A DNA stretch of 64,000 nt, taken from positions 6,665 to 70,664 of the forward strand of contig JACCZW010000062.1 in NCBI GenBank assembly GCA_013695765.1. The letters are read 5' to 3'. Positions within the stretch are counted from its first letter, which is position 1. Every line of letters starts with the position of its first letter. Shown one piece after another: positions 7,750-20,900 of the stretch. A model generated the notes under the pieces. It saw only the letters and a program-made list of their open reading frames with translations, did not search any database and had not been told where the DNA came from. Both the position numbers and the translations under genes were made by a program. The DNA is from Gammaproteobacteria bacterium. Lineage in GTDB: Bacteria; Pseudomonadota; Gammaproteobacteria; JACCYU01.

Positions 7750-9168
7750 ATGAGACCCCCACACATCAGACCCACGGTCGCACTGGTCGGGCGTCCGAAC
7801 GTCGGCAAGTCAACCCTGTTCAACCAGCTTACGCGCACGCGCGACGCCCTGGTGGCGGATGCGCCCGGCCTCACGCGTGATCGCAATTATGGTCTCGCGT
7901 CGCTGGGTTCGCGCCAATGCTGGTTGATCGATACCGGCGGACTCGAAGGCGAACGCGAGGCGCTGGATAAAGCCGTCACGGAACAAACGCTGCTAGCGGT
8001 GAAAGCGGCGGATGCGGTGGTGCTGCTGGTGGACGCGCGGGCGGGGCTGACGGCCGCCGACGAAAACATCGCCAGCCAGCTTAAAAAAACGGGCCGCCCG
8101 TTGCTGATCGCGGTCAACAAGGTCGATGGTCTGGACGCCGCACAGGTCAGCGCTGAATTTCACCGTCTCGGCATCGCGCCGCTGATCGCGATCGCGGCAG
8201 TCCACCGGCATGGTCTGGCGATGCTGACGGCGGCCATTCTCGCGAATTTCGCGCTCGGTGAGGATGACGATGACGCGCAGCGCGTGGATGGGGCCTATGA
8301 CGGTCTGCGCATCGCGCTGATCGGCAGACCCAACGTGGGCAAGTCCACCCTGGTCAACCGCCTGCTCGGCGAACAGCGGGTGCTGACCTCGCCGGAGCCC
8401 GGCACCACGCGCGACAGCATCGCGATCCCGTTCGAGCGCGGTGGTCAGCGCTACGTGCTGGCCGATACGGCGGGTGTGCGCCGCCGCAGCCGCATCGAGG
8501 AAACGATCGAGAAGTTCAGCGTGATGAAATCGCTGCAAGCCATTGACTCCGCTCAGGTAGTCGTGGCCGTGCTGGACGCAGAGCAGGGTGTGGCCGAACA
8601 GGACGCGAGCCTGCTGGGGCTGGTTCTGGAATCAGGGCGCGCGCTGGTGATCGCCGTCAACAAATGGGACAGCGTGGATCAGGACGAGCAGCGCTGGGTA
8701 CGGCGCGAGCTGGATCGAAGGCTTAGCTTCGTGGACTTCGCCGACCGTGTCATGATTTCCGCCCTGCACGGCAGCGGGGTGGCTAAATTGATGAATGCCG
8801 TACGGCGCGCGCATGCGTCGGCAATGATCGATGTATCGACCCCGGTCCTGACGCGCCTGCTGGAACAGGCGACCTCAAGCCATCAGCCGCCGCTGGTCGC
8901 GGGCCGACGAATCCGGCTGCGCTACGCTCATCAGGGCGGCAACAATCCGCTGACGCTGGTTATTCACGGCAACCAGACGGGCAAGCTGCCGGGTGCGTAC
9001 AAGCGCTATCTGATGAATTACTTTCGCGAGGCGTTGCGTTTGACCGGCACGCCGGTGCGGCTGGTGTTCAAGACGGGCGAGAATCCCTACGCCGGACGCG
9101 CCGCGGGCGCCCGGGCGCATGATAAAAGCCACGGCCGGCGCTCCGGACGCACCGTAAAACGTGGATAA
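7750..9168 (+). CDS. der: Ribosome-associated GTPase Der (EngA), double GTPase domain
   Basis: Two G-domains each with GRPNVGKST and DTAG motifs, plus a KH-like C-terminal domain. Confidence 0.95.
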   Translation: MRPPHIRPTVALVGRPNVGKSTLFNQLTRTRDALVADAPGLTRDRNYGLASLGSRQCWLIDTGGLEGEREALDKAVTEQTLLAVKAADAVVLLVDARAGLTAADENIASQLKKTGRPLLIAVNKVDGLDAAQVSAEFHRLGIAPLIAIAAVHRHGLAMLTAAILANFALGEDDDDAQRVDGAYDGLRIALIGRPNVGKSTLVNRLLGEQRVLTSPEPGTTRDSIAIPFERGGQRYVLADTAGVRRRSRIEETIEKFSVMKSLQAIDSAQVVVAVLDAEQGVAEQDASLLGLVLESGRALVIAVNKWDSVDQDEQRWVRRELDRRLSFVDFADRVMISALHGSGVAKLMNAVRRAHASAMIDVSTPVLTRLLEQATSSHQPPLVAGRRIRLRYAHQGGNNPLTLVIHGNQTGKLPGAYKRYLMNYFREALRLTGTPVRLVFKTGENPYAGRAAGARAHDKSHGRRSGRTVKRG

Positions 9169-9191
9169 AACCGTAAAACGCGGATAAAAAA

Positions 9192-9215
9192 GGGCCCGCG
9201 AGCGATCGCGGGCCC
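9192..9215. terminator. Bidirectional rho-independent terminator between convergent der and the LamG-SGNH gene
   Basis: Perfect 10-bp GC-rich stem GGGCCCGCGA/TCGCGGGCCC with a GCGA (GNRA) loop. A6 run upstream (a T6 tail on the minus strand) and ttttctt downstream on the plus strand. Confidence 0.55.
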
Positions 9216-9245
9216 GGTGAATTTTCTTGCCTTAACGGTATTTGC

Positions 9246-10798
9246 TTAGTTAAGAATCCCGCTGCCCGCTAGCGACTGGAACCATAGATCGGCCATCGCC
9301 TTATAACCCGCCCCATTAGGGTGGATGTTGTCAGTGAGCTGGCCGGGGTTCTGTTTGAAATAGTTATAAAAATCCGGCGGGGTCACGGTGATGCCATTCG
9401 CCGCTACCAGTTCGTCGATCACCAGGTTGTAATCCTGGATCAGCCGGTCCTGCGACACCGGCGCGTTGACGATGAACGGCACCTTGGCAAGTATCGGAAT
9501 CTTGTTCGACTGCTTGAGGCTGGTGATGATGCGCTGCATGCTGTCCTTGAACGAGCCGCTGTAGCCGCTGGCGCCGGGCAGCAAACCTATGCCGCTGCGA
9601 ATCGGGCGCTTGGAATCGTTGGTGCCGAACATGATCAGCCAGTATTGCGATTCGGTTTGACGCAACTTGGTGGAGTTGATCCGTGAAGCGCCGCCCGCGC
9701 CCCCGGTGCCCGACGTGGTGCCGCCCTGACCTTCGTTTAAAACCGTTACCGGCAGCCCGAGCTGCGCGGTAAGCAGATCGTTGAGGATGGGGGTGAAACC
9801 GTGGCTCACGTTGCGACCATCGGACGAGGCGTCATCGCCGGGGACGTCGTCATTCGTGCCCACCGTAATGCTGTCGCCCATGGCGACGAAATACCGGCCT
9901 CTCGCGCCCACCACCGTATTCGCGTCCTGCGCCAGCGGTGACGGTATGGGGAGGCCGGAGGCATCGACGATAACGGCGCTTACGATGTGATCGCCGGCAG
10001 CGACAGCAGTGAATTTACCCCCGTAAGGCGAGGTCTTGTCGGTGAACGAGAGGCCGTTGTCCAGAGTAAACCGCAGGCCGCCACCGGCGGGTGTACCCTT
10101 GGCGACCGCCGCGACATCAAGTGTGCCGCTGGTTTCCACCGAATAGAAACGGGTCTGGAAACAACCAGTGCAGACGTGGCGCTGGTGGTGTTTACCACGA
10201 CATCGTCGAATACCGCCTGGCCTTGCGAGAACAGGCCCACCGTGCCGGTGGTCAGGCTCGTGTCCTGTGCGCTGAACAGCGCCTCACCGTCAAGGTAAAC
10301 CAGGATACTGCTGCTGCGGACATCGATCTTGACCACGTGCGGCTGGCTGAAATCCGGGCCGCGACCGTCGAAGGCCAGGGTCGTGAATTTGCCGTTAACC
10401 CGCTTCTCCAGTCGGCTGAAGCCCTGATTGCGGTTGATGGTGAAGCGATAGTAATTCTTGTTGTTCGTGTATCTGAACATCACGCCGACGCTGTTGGTGC
10501 TGACCGGCGCCAGACGCACGGTGACTTCGTAATCCGTGAAGTTCAGGCCGTTCTGATTGAACGCGTAACTGCCGCTGTGAAAACTCTGCACGTACCCGCG
10601 TACGTCGTTCGCCTGTCGATAGCCGCCGTTGGCGACCTGCCAGGCCGGCGCGCCAGTGGAGTCATCTACCACCGTCCAGCCATTGGCGTTGCCATCGCTG
10701 AAATTATCGGACAGCAGCGTGGCGCCGTGCGCCGCCAGGCTCGTGAACAGCAAGAAAAAGCCGGCCAGTTTGCCGGTTACATGAAATGTAAAACGCAT
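9246..10798 (-). pseudogene. Secreted LamG/concanavalin-like domain fused to an SGNH/GDSL hydrolase (lipase/esterase), split by a frameshift near 10140-10165
   Basis: ORF 9980..10798 has a signal peptide (LLFTSLAAHGA) and a lectin/glucanase-like beta-sandwich domain, but its last ~60 aa are out-of-frame noise. ORF 9246..10139 carries the GDSL block (FVAMGDSITVG...GQGGTTSG) with no signal peptide of its own. The two overlap by 160 nt in different frames. Confidence 0.6.
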
Positions 10799-11952: not shown

Positions 11953-13197
11953 ATGTCTTCGTACCCCGCGCCCGGCGCCAGCGTGGCGCTAAGAATGCGC
12001 CACATCCGTCCCTTTCACGTGATGCAGTTGCTGGCGCGCGCGCAGGCGCTGGAGGCGGCGGGCAAATCTATCATCCACATGGAGATCGGCGAGCCGGATT
12101 TCCCCACCGCCCGGCCTATCGTCCAAGCCGGCGTGCGGGCGCTGCACAACGGTCACACGCACTACACGCCGGCCGCCGGCCTGCCTGCGTTGCGCGAGGC
12201 GGTCGCGCGATTCTACAAGCAGCGTTATGGATGCGATATCGCGCCACAGCGCGTGGTAATTACCACCGGCGCATCGGCGGCGTTGCAATTAATCTGCGGT
12301 GTGCTGATAGATCCCGGCGCTCGGGTGCTCATGACCGATCCCGGTTATCCCTGCAATGCCAACTTCGTGCGCCTGTTTGGCGGCGAACCAGTTTGCATCC
12401 CCGTCGATGCGGCTAGCGATTACCAGTTGAACACGTCCTTGCTACGAAAACACTGGGGCAGGGCGGTGGCCGGCGCATGGCTGGGATCGCCTTCGAATCC
12501 GACCGGCACCTTGATCGCCGAGCCCGAGTTGCGCGCGATGATCGATTACTGCCGTGAGAAAAGCGGCTTCGTGATCGTCGACGAGATCTACCACGGGCTG
12601 ACCTACGAAACGTCGCCCGTGAGCGCGGCCGCGATAACGGATGACGTGTTTGTCATCAACAGCTTCTCCAAATATTTCGGCATGACCGGTTGGCGCCTGG
12701 GTTGGCTGATCGCACCCGAACGATTCGTGCCCGAAATCGAGAAACTCGCGCAGAATATTTATCTGGCGCCGCCGACACCCGCGCAACACGCCGCGCTCAC
12801 CGCGCTGGAACCCGCCACCATCGATATTCTGGAGAACCACCGTGACGCCTTTAAGCGCCGCCGCGACTTTCTTTTGCCAGCATTGCGCGAACTCGGCTTC
12901 GATATACCGGTGCAACCGCAGGGCGCGTTTTATATTTATGCCAACTGCGCACGCCTGACCGACGACAGCCATGCCTTCACCCTGCGGCTGCTGGAAGATT
13001 ACGGCGTCGCCATCGCCCCCGGTATCGACTTCGGGAGCCATCGCACCGAAGAACACGTGCGCTTCGCGTACACCACTTCGATGAAAAAACTGCAACAGGG
13101 CGTAGCGCGCCTGGCAAAGGCGTTGACGAATTCGCCCAACAACTTTGATGCGCCCGGCGCACAGGCGCCTCTACCTAACGGTCGGCTTGTTAAGTAA
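11953..13197 (+). CDS. Pyridoxal-phosphate-dependent aminotransferase, class I/II
   Basis: Fold-type I aminotransferase blocks (GSPSNPTG, SFSKYFGMTGWRLGW with the PLP lysine). True start may be the internal MRHIRPF (11995). Confidence 0.85.
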   Translation: MSSYPAPGASVALRMRHIRPFHVMQLLARAQALEAAGKSIIHMEIGEPDFPTARPIVQAGVRALHNGHTHYTPAAGLPALREAVARFYKQRYGCDIAPQRVVITTGASAALQLICGVLIDPGARVLMTDPGYPCNANFVRLFGGEPVCIPVDAASDYQLNTSLLRKHWGRAVAGAWLGSPSNPTGTLIAEPELRAMIDYCREKSGFVIVDEIYHGLTYETSPVSAAAITDDVFVINSFSKYFGMTGWRLGWLIAPERFVPEIEKLAQNIYLAPPTPAQHAALTALEPATIDILENHRDAFKRRRDFLLPALRELGFDIPVQPQGAFYIYANCARLTDDSHAFTLRLLEDYGVAIAPGIDFGSHRTEEHVRFAYTTSMKKLQQGVARLAKALTNSPNNFDAPGAQAPLPNGRLVK

Positions 13198-13660
13198 AAT
13201 AATACATCCGTTGTGAACTCGCGTCAGCGCGAATCGGTCTGTAAATACCTTTACGATCTCAGCAAGGGTATTCTGCTGGCGGGCGTGATTAGCTACGTTG
13301 CCGGCGACGCGGCATTATGGGCGCTGCTGCTTGATTTTGCCGTTGCCGCACAGACGTTTTAGATTGCCCACGAGGTGGAGGGTAAACGTGAACGCATACG
13401 AACGGCTTAGTGTGATACTCGCGTCAATTTCGACGCCAGTTTTTTTGTGGTTGTTATGGCATCAAGATCGGCACAAACGCCGATGATCTTTTAAGCCGGC
13501 GCGATCGATGGCGGTAAACTAAAGAACAACCTCGAATCACCGCTCCGGGGCCAAGTATCGCTGCCGCCGCTCCATACGCGCTGCACATGTGTCTTGAAGC
13601 TGATGCCGGCGGCAATCGATTTTGTAGTTCGGTAATCCCTGGCCGACGAGCGGTCGGTGG

Positions 13661-14365
13661 TCAAGCCTTAACGTACTTTGCCAGAAACTCGTCCGTGCGA
13701 CGCCAGGCGAGCTTCGTGGCTTCCGGGTCGTAGTGGTCCGCGAGTTTATGCACGTTAGGATTACCTGGTTTCAATGTTTCATTGCCGAAGCCGTGATGGG
13801 CGTCGTACCAATGAAATTCGTATTTTACCCGCGCGTCTTTGAGTTTTTTCTCGGCCGCGCTCACTTCGTTCGCCGGGAAAAACTCGTCGTGCTCAGCGAA
13901 ATGGCCTTGCAAGGGAATCGCAATCGTGGTCACGTCGGCTGCGTCTTCGGATGGCATGCCGTACCAGCAGACCGCGGCGTCGGCTTCCTTTACATGCACC
14001 GCAGCTAATATCGTCAGCGCGCCGCCCATGCAGAAGCCCATCACGGCGACTTTCGGGCTCGACTCTTTTAAATATTGCACCGCGCCGCGCACGTCCTGCG
14101 TGGCCGCATCGGCGAAATCGAGATCGCCCATCAGATGCTCGGCCTCAGCCTCTTCGGCCGTGACCTTACCCTTGTACAGATCCGGCACCAGCACACGATA
14201 GCCCTGGCTTGCCAAGCGGTCGGCCACACCTTTGATTTGATCGTTGAGGCCCCACCATTCCTGGATCACCACCACGCCGGGCGCGTGCTCGCCAGCGCCC
14301 GCTTCGACGTAGTAACCCGCGGTCTGCTTGCCGTCCGGCCGCTCGAATGTAATCTTCTTGCTCAT
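13661..14365 (-). CDS. Dienelactone hydrolase family protein (carboxymethylenebutenolidase-like)
   Basis: alpha/beta-hydrolase with GFCMGG nucleophile elbow. Start at MSKKITF supported by an upstream GAGGAG. Confidence 0.85.
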   Translation of the reverse strand: MSKKITFERPDGKQTAGYYVEAGAGEHAPGVVVIQEWWGLNDQIKGVADRLASQGYRVLVPDLYKGKVTAEEAEAEHLMGDLDFADAATQDVRGAVQYLKESSPKVAVMGFCMGGALTILAAVHVKEADAAVCWYGMPSEDAADVTTIAIPLQGHFAEHDEFFPANEVSAAEKKLKDARVKYEFHWYDAHHGFGNETLKPGNPNVHKLADHYDPEATKLAWRRTDEFLAKYVKA

Positions 14366-14551
14366 GGGTCGCTCCTCGTCATGGTGTGGATTTGTTTGAC
14401 TAAGGCGATGGCAGCAATGCGCGTGCCAATCGGCCAGGCATAATGGATGAACCATGTGGGTTATACCGGTGACGAAGGTGCGAGAAAAGTCTGACGAATC
14501 ACCGTTTCAGAATACGCGAGAGATTAAGTACCTAACGTCAAAAGCTATTCT

Positions 14552-15196
14552 ATGAGTGATCATCTTTACCCGAATCTCGACATGTTTGCTGATGCTGGTG
14601 CCACCCCGTCGGGACATGCGTTCAAACGCGTCGAGATGCCGGATGCCGACGTTATTCTTTTCAAATGCTTTTTTGATGTATCCACGGGCGACGCCTATTT
14701 CAAAGAACTAAATGAAAATGCGGCCTGGAAGCAAGAAAAGATCAAGCTGTACGGGCGGCGCATTGATTTACCCCGACTAACTGCCTGGTATGGCGATAAA
14801 GGCAAGTCGTACAGGTATTCGGGCATTACTGTCAGCCCGGAGCCTTGGACGCCGATTTTGCTAGCTATTAAGCAAGCGATTGAAGCCGTGAGTGGAATAC
14901 GGTTCAACAGCGTGCTTTTGAACAAGTATCGGACCGAGCGCGACAGCGTTGCGTGGCACAGCGATGATGAGCTCGAGTTGGGACGAAACCCCGTCATCGG
15001 CTCGGTCAGCTTTGGAGAAGCCCGCGCCTTTCAGTTCAAACACAAGACGAGAGGTTTACGTGAACAAATCATCTTGTCGCACGGAAGCTATCTGATTATG
15101 CGGGGAACCACCCAACATCATTGGTTGCATCAAATCCCCAAACAAACCGCGTTACGCGGTGCAAGGATTAATCTGACGTTCAGGGTAATACAGTGA
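14552..15196 (+). CDS. alkB: AlkB-family Fe(II)/2-oxoglutarate-dependent dioxygenase (alkylated DNA/RNA repair)
   Basis: 2OG-oxygenase HxD...H...R core (WHSDDE, HHWLH, RINLTFR). About 50% GC against a ~65% background. Confidence 0.85.
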   Translation: MSDHLYPNLDMFADAGATPSGHAFKRVEMPDADVILFKCFFDVSTGDAYFKELNENAAWKQEKIKLYGRRIDLPRLTAWYGDKGKSYRYSGITVSPEPWTPILLAIKQAIEAVSGIRFNSVLLNKYRTERDSVAWHSDDELELGRNPVIGSVSFGEARAFQFKHKTRGLREQIILSHGSYLIMRGTTQHHWLHQIPKQTALRGARINLTFRVIQ

Positions 15197-15224
15197 TTTC
15201 AGGAAAAATGAATTAGGGAGGAAT

Positions 15225-15308
15225 ATGTACGACGCTATTCTTGAGGGGTTGTATTTATTAAACGCATGTTCTACTGAAGCAAATAAGCGTGCTATCTGGA
15301 GGGACTGA
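15225..15308 (+). CDS. Hypothetical 27-aa small protein (MYDAILEGLYLLNACSTEANKRAIWRD)
   Basis: Strong Shine-Dalgarno AGGGAGGA 5 nt upstream of the ATG, inside the low-GC island. No homology assessable. Confidence 0.2.
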   Translation: MYDAILEGLYLLNACSTEANKRAIWRD

Positions 15309-15369
15309 AACTAGCCGCCGCGGCATTATGGCGAACTTACCAAAATCAGCAAGTAAACGCTGCTTATTA

Positions 15370-15560
15370 CGCGCGGGATACACTGCGGCGGTCGCGCAAA
15401 GCCAGGGTCATGATTGCTCATAAGCGCGTAAGTACAATCCAGCGCCAGCATCCACGCGCTGAAGGTTGTCTTGGCAACGGCGCGATTACATTCAATTCGC
15501 GCCAGAGTGGCGAAGAGTGGATTAACCGGCCAGGCGGATCACGCAGTTAAGCCTTGAGAT
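15370..15560 (-). pseudogene. Degraded remnant of a cysZ-like sulfate transporter gene
   Basis: About 140-190 bp with roughly 80-85% nucleotide identity to nt 16850-16990 of the intact cysZ in the same orientation (aagccagg(g)tcatgattgc...ccagcgccagcatccac(a/g)cgctgaa...acattcaat). It translates to ...AWMLALDCTYALMSNHD... with a frameshift. Confidence 0.5.
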
Positions 15561-15682
15561 TGCATCCACCCACGTCTCACGCCGTTTTTTGATGTATCGA
15601 GCGTTTTTCATACGACTTACTTCCGGACATCAGCTTAATTACTGGCCGATACGCGCCGTGGTTCATGCGCGGCGGACTCAAA

Positions 15683-16438
15683 CTAGTAACCGAACAGTTC
15701 TATGTCTTTTCGATACGCTCGCGCGACAATTTCCCGCGTCTCTTCAGTGTAGTAATGGCTGTAGCCGAGCCGCTTGGACTTGTTCAGGTGGTTCATATCC
15801 GTGCCGATATTACCCAGCTTTTGCCGCACCTGCGTGTAATCGACGGCCCGATTTTCATGGTAGCCCACGAAATCGACCGCCAGCGTGCCCGCCTCATCGC
15901 ATAAATACTCATGTTGCGGTACCAGGATTTGGTGCTCATAGATCGATTCCGGGGTGATAAAGCCGCTCACAAATGACTCGAAATCCTGATACTGGCTTAA
16001 GTGCTTGGCTCCCCAGCGCTGAAACTGGGCTTTGATGCAGCCGTTTCGGTGGAAGTGATAAATCGAAACCAGGCGGTCCCACGGGTTACGCACGAAAATA
16101 AACTTGAAATAGTCTTTGAAGGCGCGCTCACCAAAGATCTGCTTGTATTCGGCGACGGTGCAATCTCTGCCCGTGCATGAGCCAAACAGGGATGTGCTGA
16201 TCGACTGGCCGCCCGTCTTCGGCACGTGCACATAGATACAGCGATGCCGATCGAATGGCCTCAGCGTTCGCACATTTTTTCCGTGGATGTCCTGCTGGAT
16301 GCTATGGCTGAAGGTACGGAGTTCTTGCCAATAACGTATGGTATCGCCGTTCATACTTTTCAGGCGGGCGATTCGGTATCCCCGGTAGCATTCTTTGGCC
16401 ACCAGCTTAGCGTATTTCAGCGAAAATCGATTGATCAT
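15683..16438 (-). CDS. Sulfotransferase family protein (PAPS-dependent)
   Basis: 5'-PSB motif IYVHVPKTGGQS and 3'-PB motif FVRNPWDRLVSIY. About 50% GC. Start at MINRFSLKY; the first 79 codons of the listed ORF are GC-driven extension. Confidence 0.8.
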   Translation of the reverse strand: MINRFSLKYAKLVAKECYRGYRIARLKSMNGDTIRYWQELRTFSHSIQQDIHGKNVRTLRPFDRHRCIYVHVPKTGGQSISTSLFGSCTGRDCTVAEYKQIFGERAFKDYFKFIFVRNPWDRLVSIYHFHRNGCIKAQFQRWGAKHLSQYQDFESFVSGFITPESIYEHQILVPQHEYLCDEAGTLAVDFVGYHENRAVDYTQVRQKLGNIGTDMNHLNKSKRLGYSHYYTEETREIVARAYRKDIELFGY

Positions 16439-16676
16439 GCGTTCCTCGTCTATGGTTGTTGACCAACGGTGTAGCGAACTACAGCGAGGTGGCGTCGCCC
16501 TTTTGAACACGCATAACGCTAAACCAGTAAAAACCGGCGTGTGACATAACCCTCCCCTTGTAGTAGTCCCCTCTTTTCCCGGGCCTATACCTTGACGCCG
16601 ATCGTTTGTCAACCTCAGTTGGCTGCAATGAATCGCCGCGAGGGCCTCCGTCAAAAGCTGGCCACCCAGTCGCAAT

Positions 16677-17444
16677 CTATTGATTGAACCGATTCCGGGC
16701 CTCGCGGATGGCGCCGGCGCCCGCGTCGCCGCGCAGCCGCTCTACCCACATCGCGGTGGCGCCCGCCACGCCCACCGGCATCGCGAAGAAATTCAGCACA
16801 GGAACACTGGTCATCAACAGCACCGCGCTGCCGAAACCCAGCGCCAGCGGTTTGTTTTGACCCAGCAGTCTGCGGCCATCGCGGAAAGCCAGGTCATGAT
16901 TGCCCATGGGCGCGTCGGCATACTCCAGCGCCAGCATCCACACGCTGAACACCAGCCACGCAAACGGTGCGAATACATTCAATCCGGGGATCAGGAACAG
17001 GATCAGCAGCGGGACGGTGCGAACGACGAGATAGCGAAGCTTGCGCAGCTCGTTGACAACGGCGGTGATGCCTGCCCGAAAAATGTGGCTCCAGCTCTGC
17101 GCGGGCAACGTCTGGCCGGTCAGTCGCGCCTCCAGCTTTTCCGCCAGCAGCCCGTTGAACGGCGCGCTCACGAGATTGGCGATTAAGGTAAATGTGTAGA
17201 ACACGACCAGCAGCGCGGTTACCGCGAACAGCGGCCACAGCATCCAGCGCGCCCACTCCAGCCATGCGGGCAACAGCCAGTCGAGGAACGCTTCGAACCG
17301 GCTGGCGCCGAACCAGATGGCGCCGCCGAATAACGTAAAGTTGATCAGCAACGGAATGATCACGTAGCGGCGGATGCCACGCTCCGTAATCAGACCGAAA
17401 CCGCGCGTCACGTAGCGTGCGCCGCTGGTGAATTGGCCGATCAT
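16677..17444 (-). CDS. cysZ: Sulfate transporter CysZ
   Basis: Four-TM CysZ-family topology and conserved blocks (GLITERGIRRYVIIPLLINF..., EYADAPMGNH). Confidence 0.85.
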   Translation of the reverse strand: MIGQFTSGARYVTRGFGLITERGIRRYVIIPLLINFTLFGGAIWFGASRFEAFLDWLLPAWLEWARWMLWPLFAVTALLVVFYTFTLIANLVSAPFNGLLAEKLEARLTGQTLPAQSWSHIFRAGITAVVNELRKLRYLVVRTVPLLILFLIPGLNVFAPFAWLVFSVWMLALEYADAPMGNHDLAFRDGRRLLGQNKPLALGFGSAVLLMTSVPVLNFFAMPVGVAGATAMWVERLRGDAGAGAIREARNRFNQ

Positions 17445-17496
17445 GTTTACGTTTTTCCTGGGTTTGTCTTGGTAGCGCCGCCGCGCGCCAGGTACG

Positions 17497-17886
17497 TTAC
17501 GGCAATTCGACCCTGGGCGGCGCTTCCCACTCCGGCTTGCGATGCTCGACGATTACGCTGGTATAGATTCCGCCGCGCACGTTGAAATCCGCGGTGATGC
17601 GCATGAAGCGCGGCGCGATGGCGGCCACCAGATCGGCCAGAATTTGGTTGGTCACGGCTTCGTGGAACGCGCCCACGTCGCGGTAGGACCACACGTAAGC
17701 TTTAAGCGCCTTGAGCTCTACGCAGCGCTGATCCGGGACGTATTCGATCAGCATCTCCGCGAAATCGGGTTGTCCCGTCTTGGGGCACAGACAGGTGAAT
17801 TCCGGCGCGCGGATACGAATCGTATAATCGCGCGCGGGTTGCGGATTGTCGAAAGTCTCCAGCGTGGTTTGCGGCTGGCCTGGCAT
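17497..17886 (-). CDS. queF: NADPH-dependent 7-cyano-7-deazaguanine reductase QueF (unimodular type)
   Basis: QueF motifs [14 protein letters not shown] and the C-terminal ...IEHRKPEW. Confidence 0.9.
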
Positions 17887-17968
17887 CGTTTACACTCCGG
17901 TCACATAACAGAACTCTGCGTTACAGAGTCGCGAAAATCATTTCGTATTCTACCGAAGGAACGCGTCC

Positions 17969-20900
17969 ATGCGCCTGAGCCGGGTCAAGATGGCGGGATT
18001 CAAATCGTTCGTCGATCCGACGACGATCAGTTTCCCGAGCGACCTGGTGGGCGTGGTAGGTCCGAACGGCTGCGGCAAATCCAATATCATCGACGCCGTG
18101 CGCTGGGTAATGGGCGAAAGCTCGCGGCACCTGCGCGGCGACACCATGGACGACGTGATCTTCAACGGCTCCACCGCGCGCAAGCCCGTGGGGCAGGCGA
18201 CGATCGAACTGGTGTTCGACAATCACGATGGGCAGGCCGGCGGTCAATACGCGCAATACAGCGAGATCGCCCTGCGACGCACGCTCGCGCGCGACGGCCA
18301 GTCCAGATATTTCCTGAATGGCGGCGCCTGCCGGCGACGCGACGTGACCGATATTTTTCTCGGCACGGGACTGGGGCCACGCAGCTACGCGATCATCGAG
18401 CAGGGCATGATCTCGCGTCTGATCGAGGCGCGCCCCGAGGACCTGCGTGTGTATCTCGAAGAGGCTGCGGGCATCTCGAAGTACAAGGAACGCCGCCGCG
18501 AAACGGAACTCCGCATCCGTCACGCACGCGATAACGTCAACCGGCTGAATGACCTTCGTGAGGAAATCGACAAGCAGATCAGCCACCTTCAGCGTCAGGC
18601 GAAAGCGGCGGAGAAGTATCAGGCGCTAAAAAGCGAGGAACGGCGCGCGAAGGCGGCCTTGCTGGCGCTGCGCTGGCGGCGGCAGTCGCGGGACGCCCTG
18701 GATGCAGAAAAGGAAGTCAACGCGCACCAGACCCGGCACGAACAGGCCGTGGCGGAATTGCGCCGCATCGGGGCCGACATCGAGCAGTTGCGCGTGCGCC
18801 ATATCGAAGCCAACAACACCTTCAACGATGTGCAGGGGGATTACTATCGGCTAGGTGGCGATATATCCAGGATCGAACAGTCGATCACGCATCATAAGGA
18901 GTTGAGCGAGCGGCACGCGCTGGAACTCGATCAGGTCCGCCAGGCGTGGGAAACATCGGACGCCGAACTGAATCGCGATCGCGAGCGCTGCGTGCAACTG
19001 GCGCGAGATATCGCCGTCGCCGAACCCGAGTACGCGCGTGGCGAGACGGCGCTTGACGGCCATGCCCGAGTACTCGCCGACGCCGAGCTGGCCATGCAGA
19101 ACTGGCAGAGGCAGTGGGAAGACCTGACTCAACGCAGCCGCGCGCCGGAACAGGCAGCAGAGGTCGAGCGTGCCCGCATGGAGTACCTGGCGCGTCAGCT
19201 CGCGCAGCTCGATCAGCGGCATCAGCGGCTGGCGCGGGAAAACGAACAGATCGATCCGGCCGCGCTGAAAACCGCAATCGAACAACTGCGCGGGCAGGCC
19301 GCGCAGGGCGGCGCGCAGCTGGACGAGCAACAACAAGCGTTGAACGCGGCGCTGGCGGCTATCACGCGGCAGCGGGACCACGACAAAATCTTAAGCCAGC
19401 AGCTCGACGAGATTGCCAAGCGCGCGCAGCAGGCGAGTGGTCGGCTGACCTCCATGGAAGTTCTGCAGGAAGCCGCGCTGGGCAAACAGGCCAGGGGCAA
19501 GCAGGCGCGGGGCGTTGTGGAGTGGCTCAAGACAAACGGTCTGGGGGATGCGCCGCGGCTGGCTCAGTGCGTGCGCGCCGCGCCTGGCTGGGAGCACGCG
19601 CTGGAAACCGTGCTGGGACCCAGTCTCGAAGCGGTGTGTGTGGATACGCTGGAGGCGGCGGCGGCGAGTGTTCAGGAATTACAGGCCGGGCCGCTACACC
19701 TGCTGGCAACGGACGGCAGCGCGAATGACACTCGTGTCGAAACCCGGGCCGAAACCGGGACCTTGCTGAGCCATGTCGATGCCCCCGCCGCACTGGATGA
19801 AATGCTTGCCCGGATTTACGTGGCGGACGATCTGGGACAGGCGTTTACGCGCCGCCAGACTCTCACCGCCGGCCAGTCGGTGGTGACGGCGGATGGCATC
19901 TGGCTGGGTCGCGACTGGCTGCGCGTGACCCGAGGTTCGACCGGACATGATGGCGTGCTCGCGCGCGAGACCGAAATCAAGACATTGCGGAAAGAGCTGG
20001 CGGCGCTCAATGAGTGCGTTGAGGCGCTGCAGACCGAGCGGAGCGCGAGTGAACAACGGTTGCAGACGCTGGAGCAATCGCGTGAGCTCGCGCAGGCGCA
20101 AGCCAATCGTGCGCATCGCGCGCAGATCGAAGCGCACAGTCGGCTCAATCGTGAACAGCAACGGTTGCAGCAATTGAGGTCGCGCGCGGCGCATATCGCG
20201 CGCGAATTGCATGAGATCGACGCACAGGTCAAGCAGGATCAGGCAGAACTCGCGGCCTGCGAGTCGCGCGCCGCGCAGGCCACGTCCGCGATCAAGGTGC
20301 TGGGCCGAGAACGTCAATCGCTAGTCGAGCAGCGCGATGTGCTACAGGCGGCTGTGGCGGGCGCGCGCGAACTCACACGGCAGCAGCAGGAGCAGTCGCA
20401 TCGGCTCGCCTTGCGCCTGGAGGCGATGCGCGCCGCCCAGACCTCGACCAGCGAGGGTCTGGCGCGTCTGCAGGCTCAGCTCCGCGAACAAGCGCAGCGC
20501 CGTGACGCCCTGTGCGCGACTATTGCGAAGACTGAGGAACCTCGGCAGAAACAGGCTAAGGAACTGAAGTTGCTGCTTGCGCAACGTTTGGAAGTCGAGC
20601 AGGCGCTCAATGCGGCGCGCGTTGGCATGCATAATATCGAGACGGCATTGCGCGAACAGGCGGCTCAACGCCTGGCGGCGGAACGTCGCTGCGAGACCTT
20701 GCAAGAGGAACTCGAGGTGCGGCGCATGACCTGGCGCGACTTAAGCGTCCGTTGCCAGAGCATAAACGAGCAGTTTGCCGAAAGCGGATTTCAGCTCGAC
20801 ACCCTGCTAGACGAAATCGACAGCGCTGCCACTATCGAGCCCGCGGTTGAAGCCACGGTTGAACAATGCGAAGCGCAGGTAGAAAATCTCATCCGACGTA

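Follow-up and report, generated by a model that had tools for sequence, protein, structure and literature searches.

The joining of DNA by homology at one end and illegitimately at the other (homology-facilitated illegitimate recombination, HFIR) is known from Acinetobacter, Pseudomonas stutzeri, Streptococcus pneumoniae and E. coli, with 1-kb insertions and microhomologies of 3–10 bp as its typical products; single-crossover duplications of 109–950 bp were also recorded in that study (PMC3240628). The same logic has been applied to the T6SS loci of Vibrio cholerae and to Rhs loci, where 3' gene ends and orphan genes are found displaced (PMC5361080). We have analyzed a 64,000-nucleotide stretch of DNA (the window) from an uncultured soil Gammaproteobacterium, in which a relic of cysZ lies 1.4 kb from the resident, intact gene. 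Quite probably, what survives is a non-functional stretch from the 3' portion of a second cysZ, left where two related chromosomes, each with its own version of the locus, were joined illegitimately during recombination. Such an event would share with HFIR products one homology-anchored and one illegitimate end and segments of about 1 kb, and both parental arrangements are present in close relatives; unlike those products, which come from the systems named above, it is reconstructed here from natural sequences only. As in the effector-immunity arrays of the V. cholerae T6SS and in Rhs loci, the 3' piece of an earlier copy persists beside newly joined DNA as a historical marker (PMC5361080), although our locus lacks toxin and immunity genes as well as a serial array, and its fragment has been trimmed by a deletion with the marks of microhomology and is frameshifted. 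Campbell-type single-crossover integration also leaves direct repeats of a gene segment flanking the inserted DNA (PMC3240628); in the window, however, the upstream copy is complete and the downstream copy is joined to native neighbours, and a splice of two architectures fits better than the integration of a circle. Finally, there is no essential difference from ordinary pseudogene fragments that arise by deletion between short repeats, with which the relic shares its TGCGGC/TGCGAC joint, neutral decay, frameshifts and drift toward A+T. The relic is thus a new instance of a well-known, ordinary genomic scar. It leaves the current understanding of sulfate transport and of recombination unchanged and is useful chiefly for annotation and for the history of the locus, which offers a clean natural example, from uncultured soil Gammaproteobacteria, of two gene orders that appear to have been spliced one-sidedly and then trimmed by a microhomology deletion.

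A decayed fragment of cysZ

Read along the minus strand, the locus consists of queF (17497–17886), the conserved left neighbour of cysZ in most of the related loci examined, the intact cysZ (16677–17444; 255 aa; Pfam EI24/CysZ family, E 5e-51), a sulfotransferase gene (15683–16438; Pfam Sulfotransfer_2, 251 aa), the relic (15383–15499), an alkB-like 2OG-Fe(II) oxygenase gene on the plus strand (14552–15196) and, again on the minus strand, a gene of the dienelactone hydrolase family (DLH; 13661–14365). The initial annotation had proposed that 15385–15500 resembles the intact cysZ, had named a pairwise alignment as the way to check this, and would have given the proposal up for want of significant similarity or if a common short repeat explained the match. 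When 15200–15700 was compared with 16600–17500 by blastn, the sole strong match paired 15383–15499 with 16870–16986 on the same strand, with 92/118 identities (78%), two gaps of 1 nt and an E value of 2e-22, in agreement with the proposal. The 117 nt correspond to nt 459–575 of cysZ, that is, to codons 153–191 only of the 255, and include neither a start codon nor the 3' end of the gene, of which the intact cysZ is the functional paralogue. The same limits (nt 459–575, E 2.7e-21) were returned by an nhmmer profile built from three cysZ genes. The frameshifted peptide read earlier from the minus strand was likewise reproduced, by tblastn, as FSAWMLALDCTYALMSNHDPGF against FSVWMLALEYADAPMGNHDLAF of CysZ (13/22 identical). 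The weaker similarity that had been reported for about 50 nt on either side has to be withdrawn: while the relic itself reaches z scores of 17–29 against shuffled sequences, both flanks score as shuffled sequence does (z −1.05 to +0.94), so that the match stops sharply. Alignment of the flanks found no homology past the 117 nt, and the profile envelope adds only some 20 nt per side.

When the relic was searched against the whole window, cysZ was recovered with an E value of 2e-21 and the next best match had an E value of 0.32. There is no third copy in the 64 kb, whereas a dispersed (REP- or MITE-like) repeat would be expected in multiple copies, and the relic is therefore not such a repeat; the common short repeat invoked above as grounds for rejection is not seen. 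An independent repeat search recovered the same pair as families D1, D6 and D7, with a spacing of 1486–1487. Nor is the relic an artefact of assembly, because four independent assemblies from the one species (L001, L002, L003 and L005) agree at 100% identity over the 486-nt intergenic region that contains it; a fifth, L004, matches over 267 nt up to the end of its contig, which covers most of the relic.

The 24 substitutions that separate the relic from the resident gene are spread evenly over the first, second and third codon positions (8, 7 and 9, respectively), and 13/71 sites that are invariant across six functional cysZ genes are altered; on both counts the relic is non-coding. Relative to the cysZ frame it has suffered a 1-nt deletion and a 1-nt insertion, its translation runs into an in-frame stop, and 12 changes run from G/C to A/T against 6 in the opposite direction. 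To judge from these changes, the relic is a cysZ pseudogene fragment under relaxed selection, and probably a dead one. The earlier description of a degraded, frameshifted partial copy is thus borne out by the truncation, by the two frameshifts and by the altered invariant sites. Annotation should call the fragment a pseudogene remnant, not a gene.

Two gene orders and two joints

Related loci, retrieved via CysZ, the sulfotransferase and AlkB, show two arrangements of the interval. In the first, represented by a sister lineage (L053–55), the order is queF-cysZ-sulfotransferase-DLH with neither alkB nor the relic, and CysZ and the sulfotransferase are 93–94% and 86% identical, respectively, to those of the window. 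A frameshifted sulfotransferase gene (17–1015, called as two ORFs) is directly followed by DLH in L063, and L065 has cysZ followed by the sulfotransferase gene. The sister lineage comes from the samples JGI 3300025721 and 3300006792 and from ENA ERZ27294418, and L063 from SRR33880244. Compared with the sister contig L053, the window is 87–95% identical over the larger part of the coding sequences (smc, queF, cysZ and the sulfotransferase gene); identity dips to about 68–82% in the spacers on either side of cysZ and at both ends of cysZ itself, and to 83–84% at the 5' end of the sulfotransferase gene. Similarity declines from about 15663. The 3' flank of the sulfotransferase gene (15519–15682, minus strand) retains 74% identity with the sister lineage, in which this flank runs on into DLH; in the window, alignable homology stops at 15519, 20 nt short of the relic. 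There is thus an abrupt switch in homology, sister-type DNA ending at 15519 and DNA of the second arrangement, cysZ piece included, starting at 15499. The 19 nt in between (15500–15518) could be assigned neither to cysZ nor to the 3' flank of the sister's sulfotransferase gene. The C-terminal tail of CysZ was also considered as a marker of the left junction and set aside, since the tails beyond WVERLR differ in all lineages.

In the second arrangement, found in L060, L061, L062 and L068 (the last from JGI 3300078401), DLH is followed by alkB, by a stub of a gene that we call X, and then by cysZ with its 3' end facing alkB. Positions 14547–15387 of the window form one block with 161–1002 of L068 (77.7% over 848 nt), which takes in alkB and the whole 186-nt spacer and ends 5 nt before the stop codon of the L068 cysZ. 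More broadly, alkB and its flanks (14300–15387) are syntenic with the relatives whose alkB points toward the 3' end of cysZ, and the identity of AlkB to that of the window (71–78% in these lineages) runs parallel to the identities of their CysZ and DLH. The G+C content of alkB is 49–51% in every lineage (window, L060, L061 and L062) against 55–63% for its neighbours, and alkB is therefore not the recent cargo of a low-G+C island. Low G+C is here an unreliable sign of an island, given that alkB has about 50% G+C in each lineage and is syntenic with its relatives; the trough at 14.4–16.6 kb is only partly a sign of import. The initial annotation had read the fragment as showing how an island was acquired. 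That part of the reading stands in which the fragment records the joining of foreign or rearranged DNA; but the supposed island is composite, and its alkB portion is syntenic with relatives.

The spacer between alkB and the relic (15197–15382, plus strand) is colinear with the spacer of L068 (125/180 identical) and holds the decayed 5' stub of gene X. The stub has an ATG with a strong SD at 15226 (start GGGAGGAATATG, residues MYDAILEGLY) and comprises, at 15226–15382 on the plus strand, about the first 57 codons, frameshifted, of a gene of 311 aa. Gene X is intact in L067 (1313–2245, minus strand), where it is convergent with cysZ; its product has a weak match to Pfam Methyltransf_34 that falls under the curated threshold. 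Stubs of X are also present in L061 (29 codons) and in L068. In the window, the stub is followed by cysZ nt 575, in place of the cysZ stop codon (nt 768) that follows it in the relatives with the second arrangement. At this joint the window has TGCGGC (15384–15389); in L068, TGCGAC closes the spacer immediately ahead of the cysZ stop, and cysZ itself has TGCGGC at nt ~570–575 (16871–16876 in the resident gene). This is the signature of a deletion of some 200 nt between short direct repeats, which would have removed nt ~576–768 of the second cysZ. Because the L068 spacer aligns with the window up to 15382–15387, the relic appears to be what remains of a cysZ that belonged beside alkB. A single deletion that took both codons 58–311 of X and the 3' end of cysZ was considered and ruled out, as the X stub of L068 already abuts an intact cysZ.

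The locus of the window would then be a left half of the sulfotransferase type spliced to a right half of the alkB type, with the relic at the joint. We propose that the sulfotransferase-type parent had the order queF-cysZ-sulfotransferase-DLH and the alkB-type parent queF-cysZ, a convergent X stub and alkB, and DLH. One side of the exchange would have been resolved by homologous recombination in the shared flanking genes. On the other, a point some 165–183 nt downstream of the sulfotransferase gene would have been joined illegitimately to nt ~459 of the alkB-type cysZ, leaving nt 459–768 of that gene attached to its native neighbours, the X stub and alkB; homology breaks off on both sides, and a single event may lie behind the two breaks. 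The deletion at the low end, where the microhomology and the colinearity are seen directly, would have come later, and the remainder would have decayed neutrally to its present state, with about 21% substitutions, two frameshifts and the bias from G/C to A/T. Overall, the history would be one of one-sided homologous plus illegitimate recombination of the HFIR type, followed by trimming and decay.

Alternative origins and a possible function

An origin in situ is the strongest of the alternatives, though we consider it unlikely. It corresponds to the reading of the initial annotation. The sulfotransferase cassette would have entered an alkB-type locus by single-crossover integration or tandem duplication, either of which would have doubled the 3' part of cysZ, and the sister lineage and L063 would later have lost the cysZ stub, the X stub and alkB. 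Single-crossover integration is known to duplicate segments of 109–950 bp (PMC3240628), and the relic has derived states in common with the resident and sister cysZ. Moreover, the Jukes–Cantor (JC) distance between the relic and the resident gene (0.24) is no smaller than the neutral distance between the resident and sister genes (0.21, at 4-fold sites and over two branches), so that the copy could predate their split. Against this, the sister lineage (contig L055 in this comparison) and L063 share the 59 nt immediately upstream of DLH, and their DLH has lost one codon, a derived state, and has the N-terminus MSEMI...P.A-E; the window has none of these. The window has the alkB-type tip MSKKITFERPDGKQTAGYYVEAGAGEH (MSKKITF..YYVEAGAGEH), as in L060, L062 and L066. 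The sulfotransferase sequences, however, place the window together with the sister and L063 outside (88.5% vs 84–85% identity), and loss of alkB in the sister and in L063 would therefore call for two identical deletions or for additional recombination. It would also be a coincidence for the homology with the sister to stop within 20 nt of the relic boundary if the deletion in the sister were unrelated. A better reading takes the junction between the sulfotransferase gene and DLH as the ancestral state of that type and regards the window as spliced from both types.

Far less probable is the duplication of an attachment site by an integrase-driven element that targeted cysZ, in the manner of e14 in the icd gene of E. 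coli. In its favour, part of the presumed target gene is repeated beyond the inserted DNA; yet no integrase, transposase, tRNA or terminal repeats were found at 13.6–17.5 kb, where the sizeable ORFs are all DLH, alkB, the sulfotransferase gene or cysZ, the piece is internal to cysZ after trimming, and it directly adjoins the genes that natively lie downstream of cysZ.

A function for the relic seems equally improbable. A plus-strand transcript from alkB and the X stub could carry the relic as an RNA antisense to the cysZ mRNA and so modulate its expression: the relic, with its 24/25-nt block (CCAGCGCCAGCATCCACGCGCTGAA), follows alkB at a distance of 186 nt on the strand that is complementary to the cysZ mRNA, and our promoter and terminator scan showed no convincing plus-strand terminator between the two. 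The related proposal, in which a co-opted relic on a read-through RNA from alkB, a gene of the alkylation-damage repair family, would tie the expression of alkB to a lowered uptake of sulfate, acting in trans, is given just as little credence. No supporting evidence was found for the antisense reading, and the relic region shows no within-species variation on which constraint could be tested. Rfam covariance models gave 0 matches at E ≤ 1 over 13000–18000, the substitutions are spread as in neutral decay and include sites that are invariant in functional cysZ genes, and the element is altogether absent from close relatives. We found nothing in favour of a chance match, of a short dispersed repeat or of a chimeric assembly, and all three can in practice be dismissed in view of the whole-window E value, the single match, the z scores and the agreement among assemblies described above.

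Direction of the proposed exchange, affinity of the relic and variation in the interval

Within the favoured reading, a splice between chromosomes of the two types, the exchange can be drawn in either direction. An alkB-type recipient may have taken up cysZ and the sulfotransferase gene with ~165–183 nt beyond it, the relic then being the recipient's own displaced cysZ, and this fits the data. Slightly favoured is the converse, in which a sulfotransferase-type recipient took up about 1.1 kb (the second cysZ from nt 459, the X stub, alkB and the DLH tip), with a crossover in the conserved 5' block of DLH. The preference comes from three observations: no breakpoint is visible between the window and the sister in the 3.1 kb of the left flank; the body and the tip of DLH differ in pattern; and an insert of ~1.1 kb matches the sizes reported for HFIR (PMC3240628). 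The comparison with the sister covers the left side of the locus, its contigs reaching 129 nt into DLH. The body of DLH has its best match in the sulfotransferase-type L063 (85% nt) and its 5' tip resembles the alkB type, alkB-type states being present at 5/9 informative sites in the tip vs 21/86 in the rest of the gene, a weak signal given so few sites. The homologous crossover of the same exchange may have fallen in the tip itself (14286–14365), again a weak signal from nine informative sites. The earlier suggestion that the sulfotransferase cassette recombined into, or was duplicated with, cysZ survives in part: uptake by an alkB-type recipient comes close to it, but the relic is contiguous with the alkB side and is not a by-product of a duplication event around the sulfotransferase.

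What speaks against the favoured reading is the affinity of the relic: its closest matches are the resident and sister cysZ (79%), vs 67–71% for every other sampled lineage, those of the alkB type included, and it carries 4/8 of the states specific to the resident-plus-sister pair. Since it is closer to this pair than to any sampled alkB-type cysZ, the alkB-type parent must, by this comparison, have been an unsampled close relative. At the five sites that split the resident from the sister gene, the relic agrees with the resident at three, with the sister at one, and has the ancestral state at one. An attempt to date the copy from these sites and from the two JC distances was dropped, the signal being too small and gene conversion possible; conversion between the two cysZ copies could have skewed how old the relic looks and to which genes it seems closest.

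Exchange within cysZ may also have taken place among the relatives. At nt ~420–630 (16815–17025 in the window), L011 pairs with L012 (86–88%) rather than with the window (81%), the opposite of the grouping in the rest of the gene, and the flip is also seen at third codon positions. The pattern suggests recombination among relatives inside cysZ. A mosaic resident cysZ, with a foreign segment at nt 420–630, was considered and rejected, because an exchange between L011 and L012 explains the pattern better.

Across the relatives, the queF-cysZ-DLH interval stands out as a hot spot for the gain and loss of genes: the sulfotransferase gene, alkB, gene X, a GNAT acetyltransferase or FGGY-type kinase gene and several stubs are found there. 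Between cysZ and DLH, L011 has the GNAT gene (8775–9272), and nothing is present in L012 or in L066; the FGGY-type kinase gene of L011 (6715–8004) lies between queF and cysZ. A 30-codon remnant of DLH is found in L061 (235–327).

As for the sulfotransferase, a metagenome scan with the protein returned a single distant locus, and tblastx of the spacers against the neighbours of sulfotransferase homologues elsewhere (L056 and L057) found no more relics. At those loci (L057 5796–7453, from the MAG of L012, and L056 2–1686) the homologues adjoin either a gene for an Inositol_P/CysQ-like phosphatase (53% identical homologue) or a response-regulator gene (69%). Linkage of the sulfotransferase to genes of sulfate and PAPS metabolism thus recurs, at differing loci. 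In L057, a partial second copy of the sulfotransferase gene (7761–8108) follows the first.
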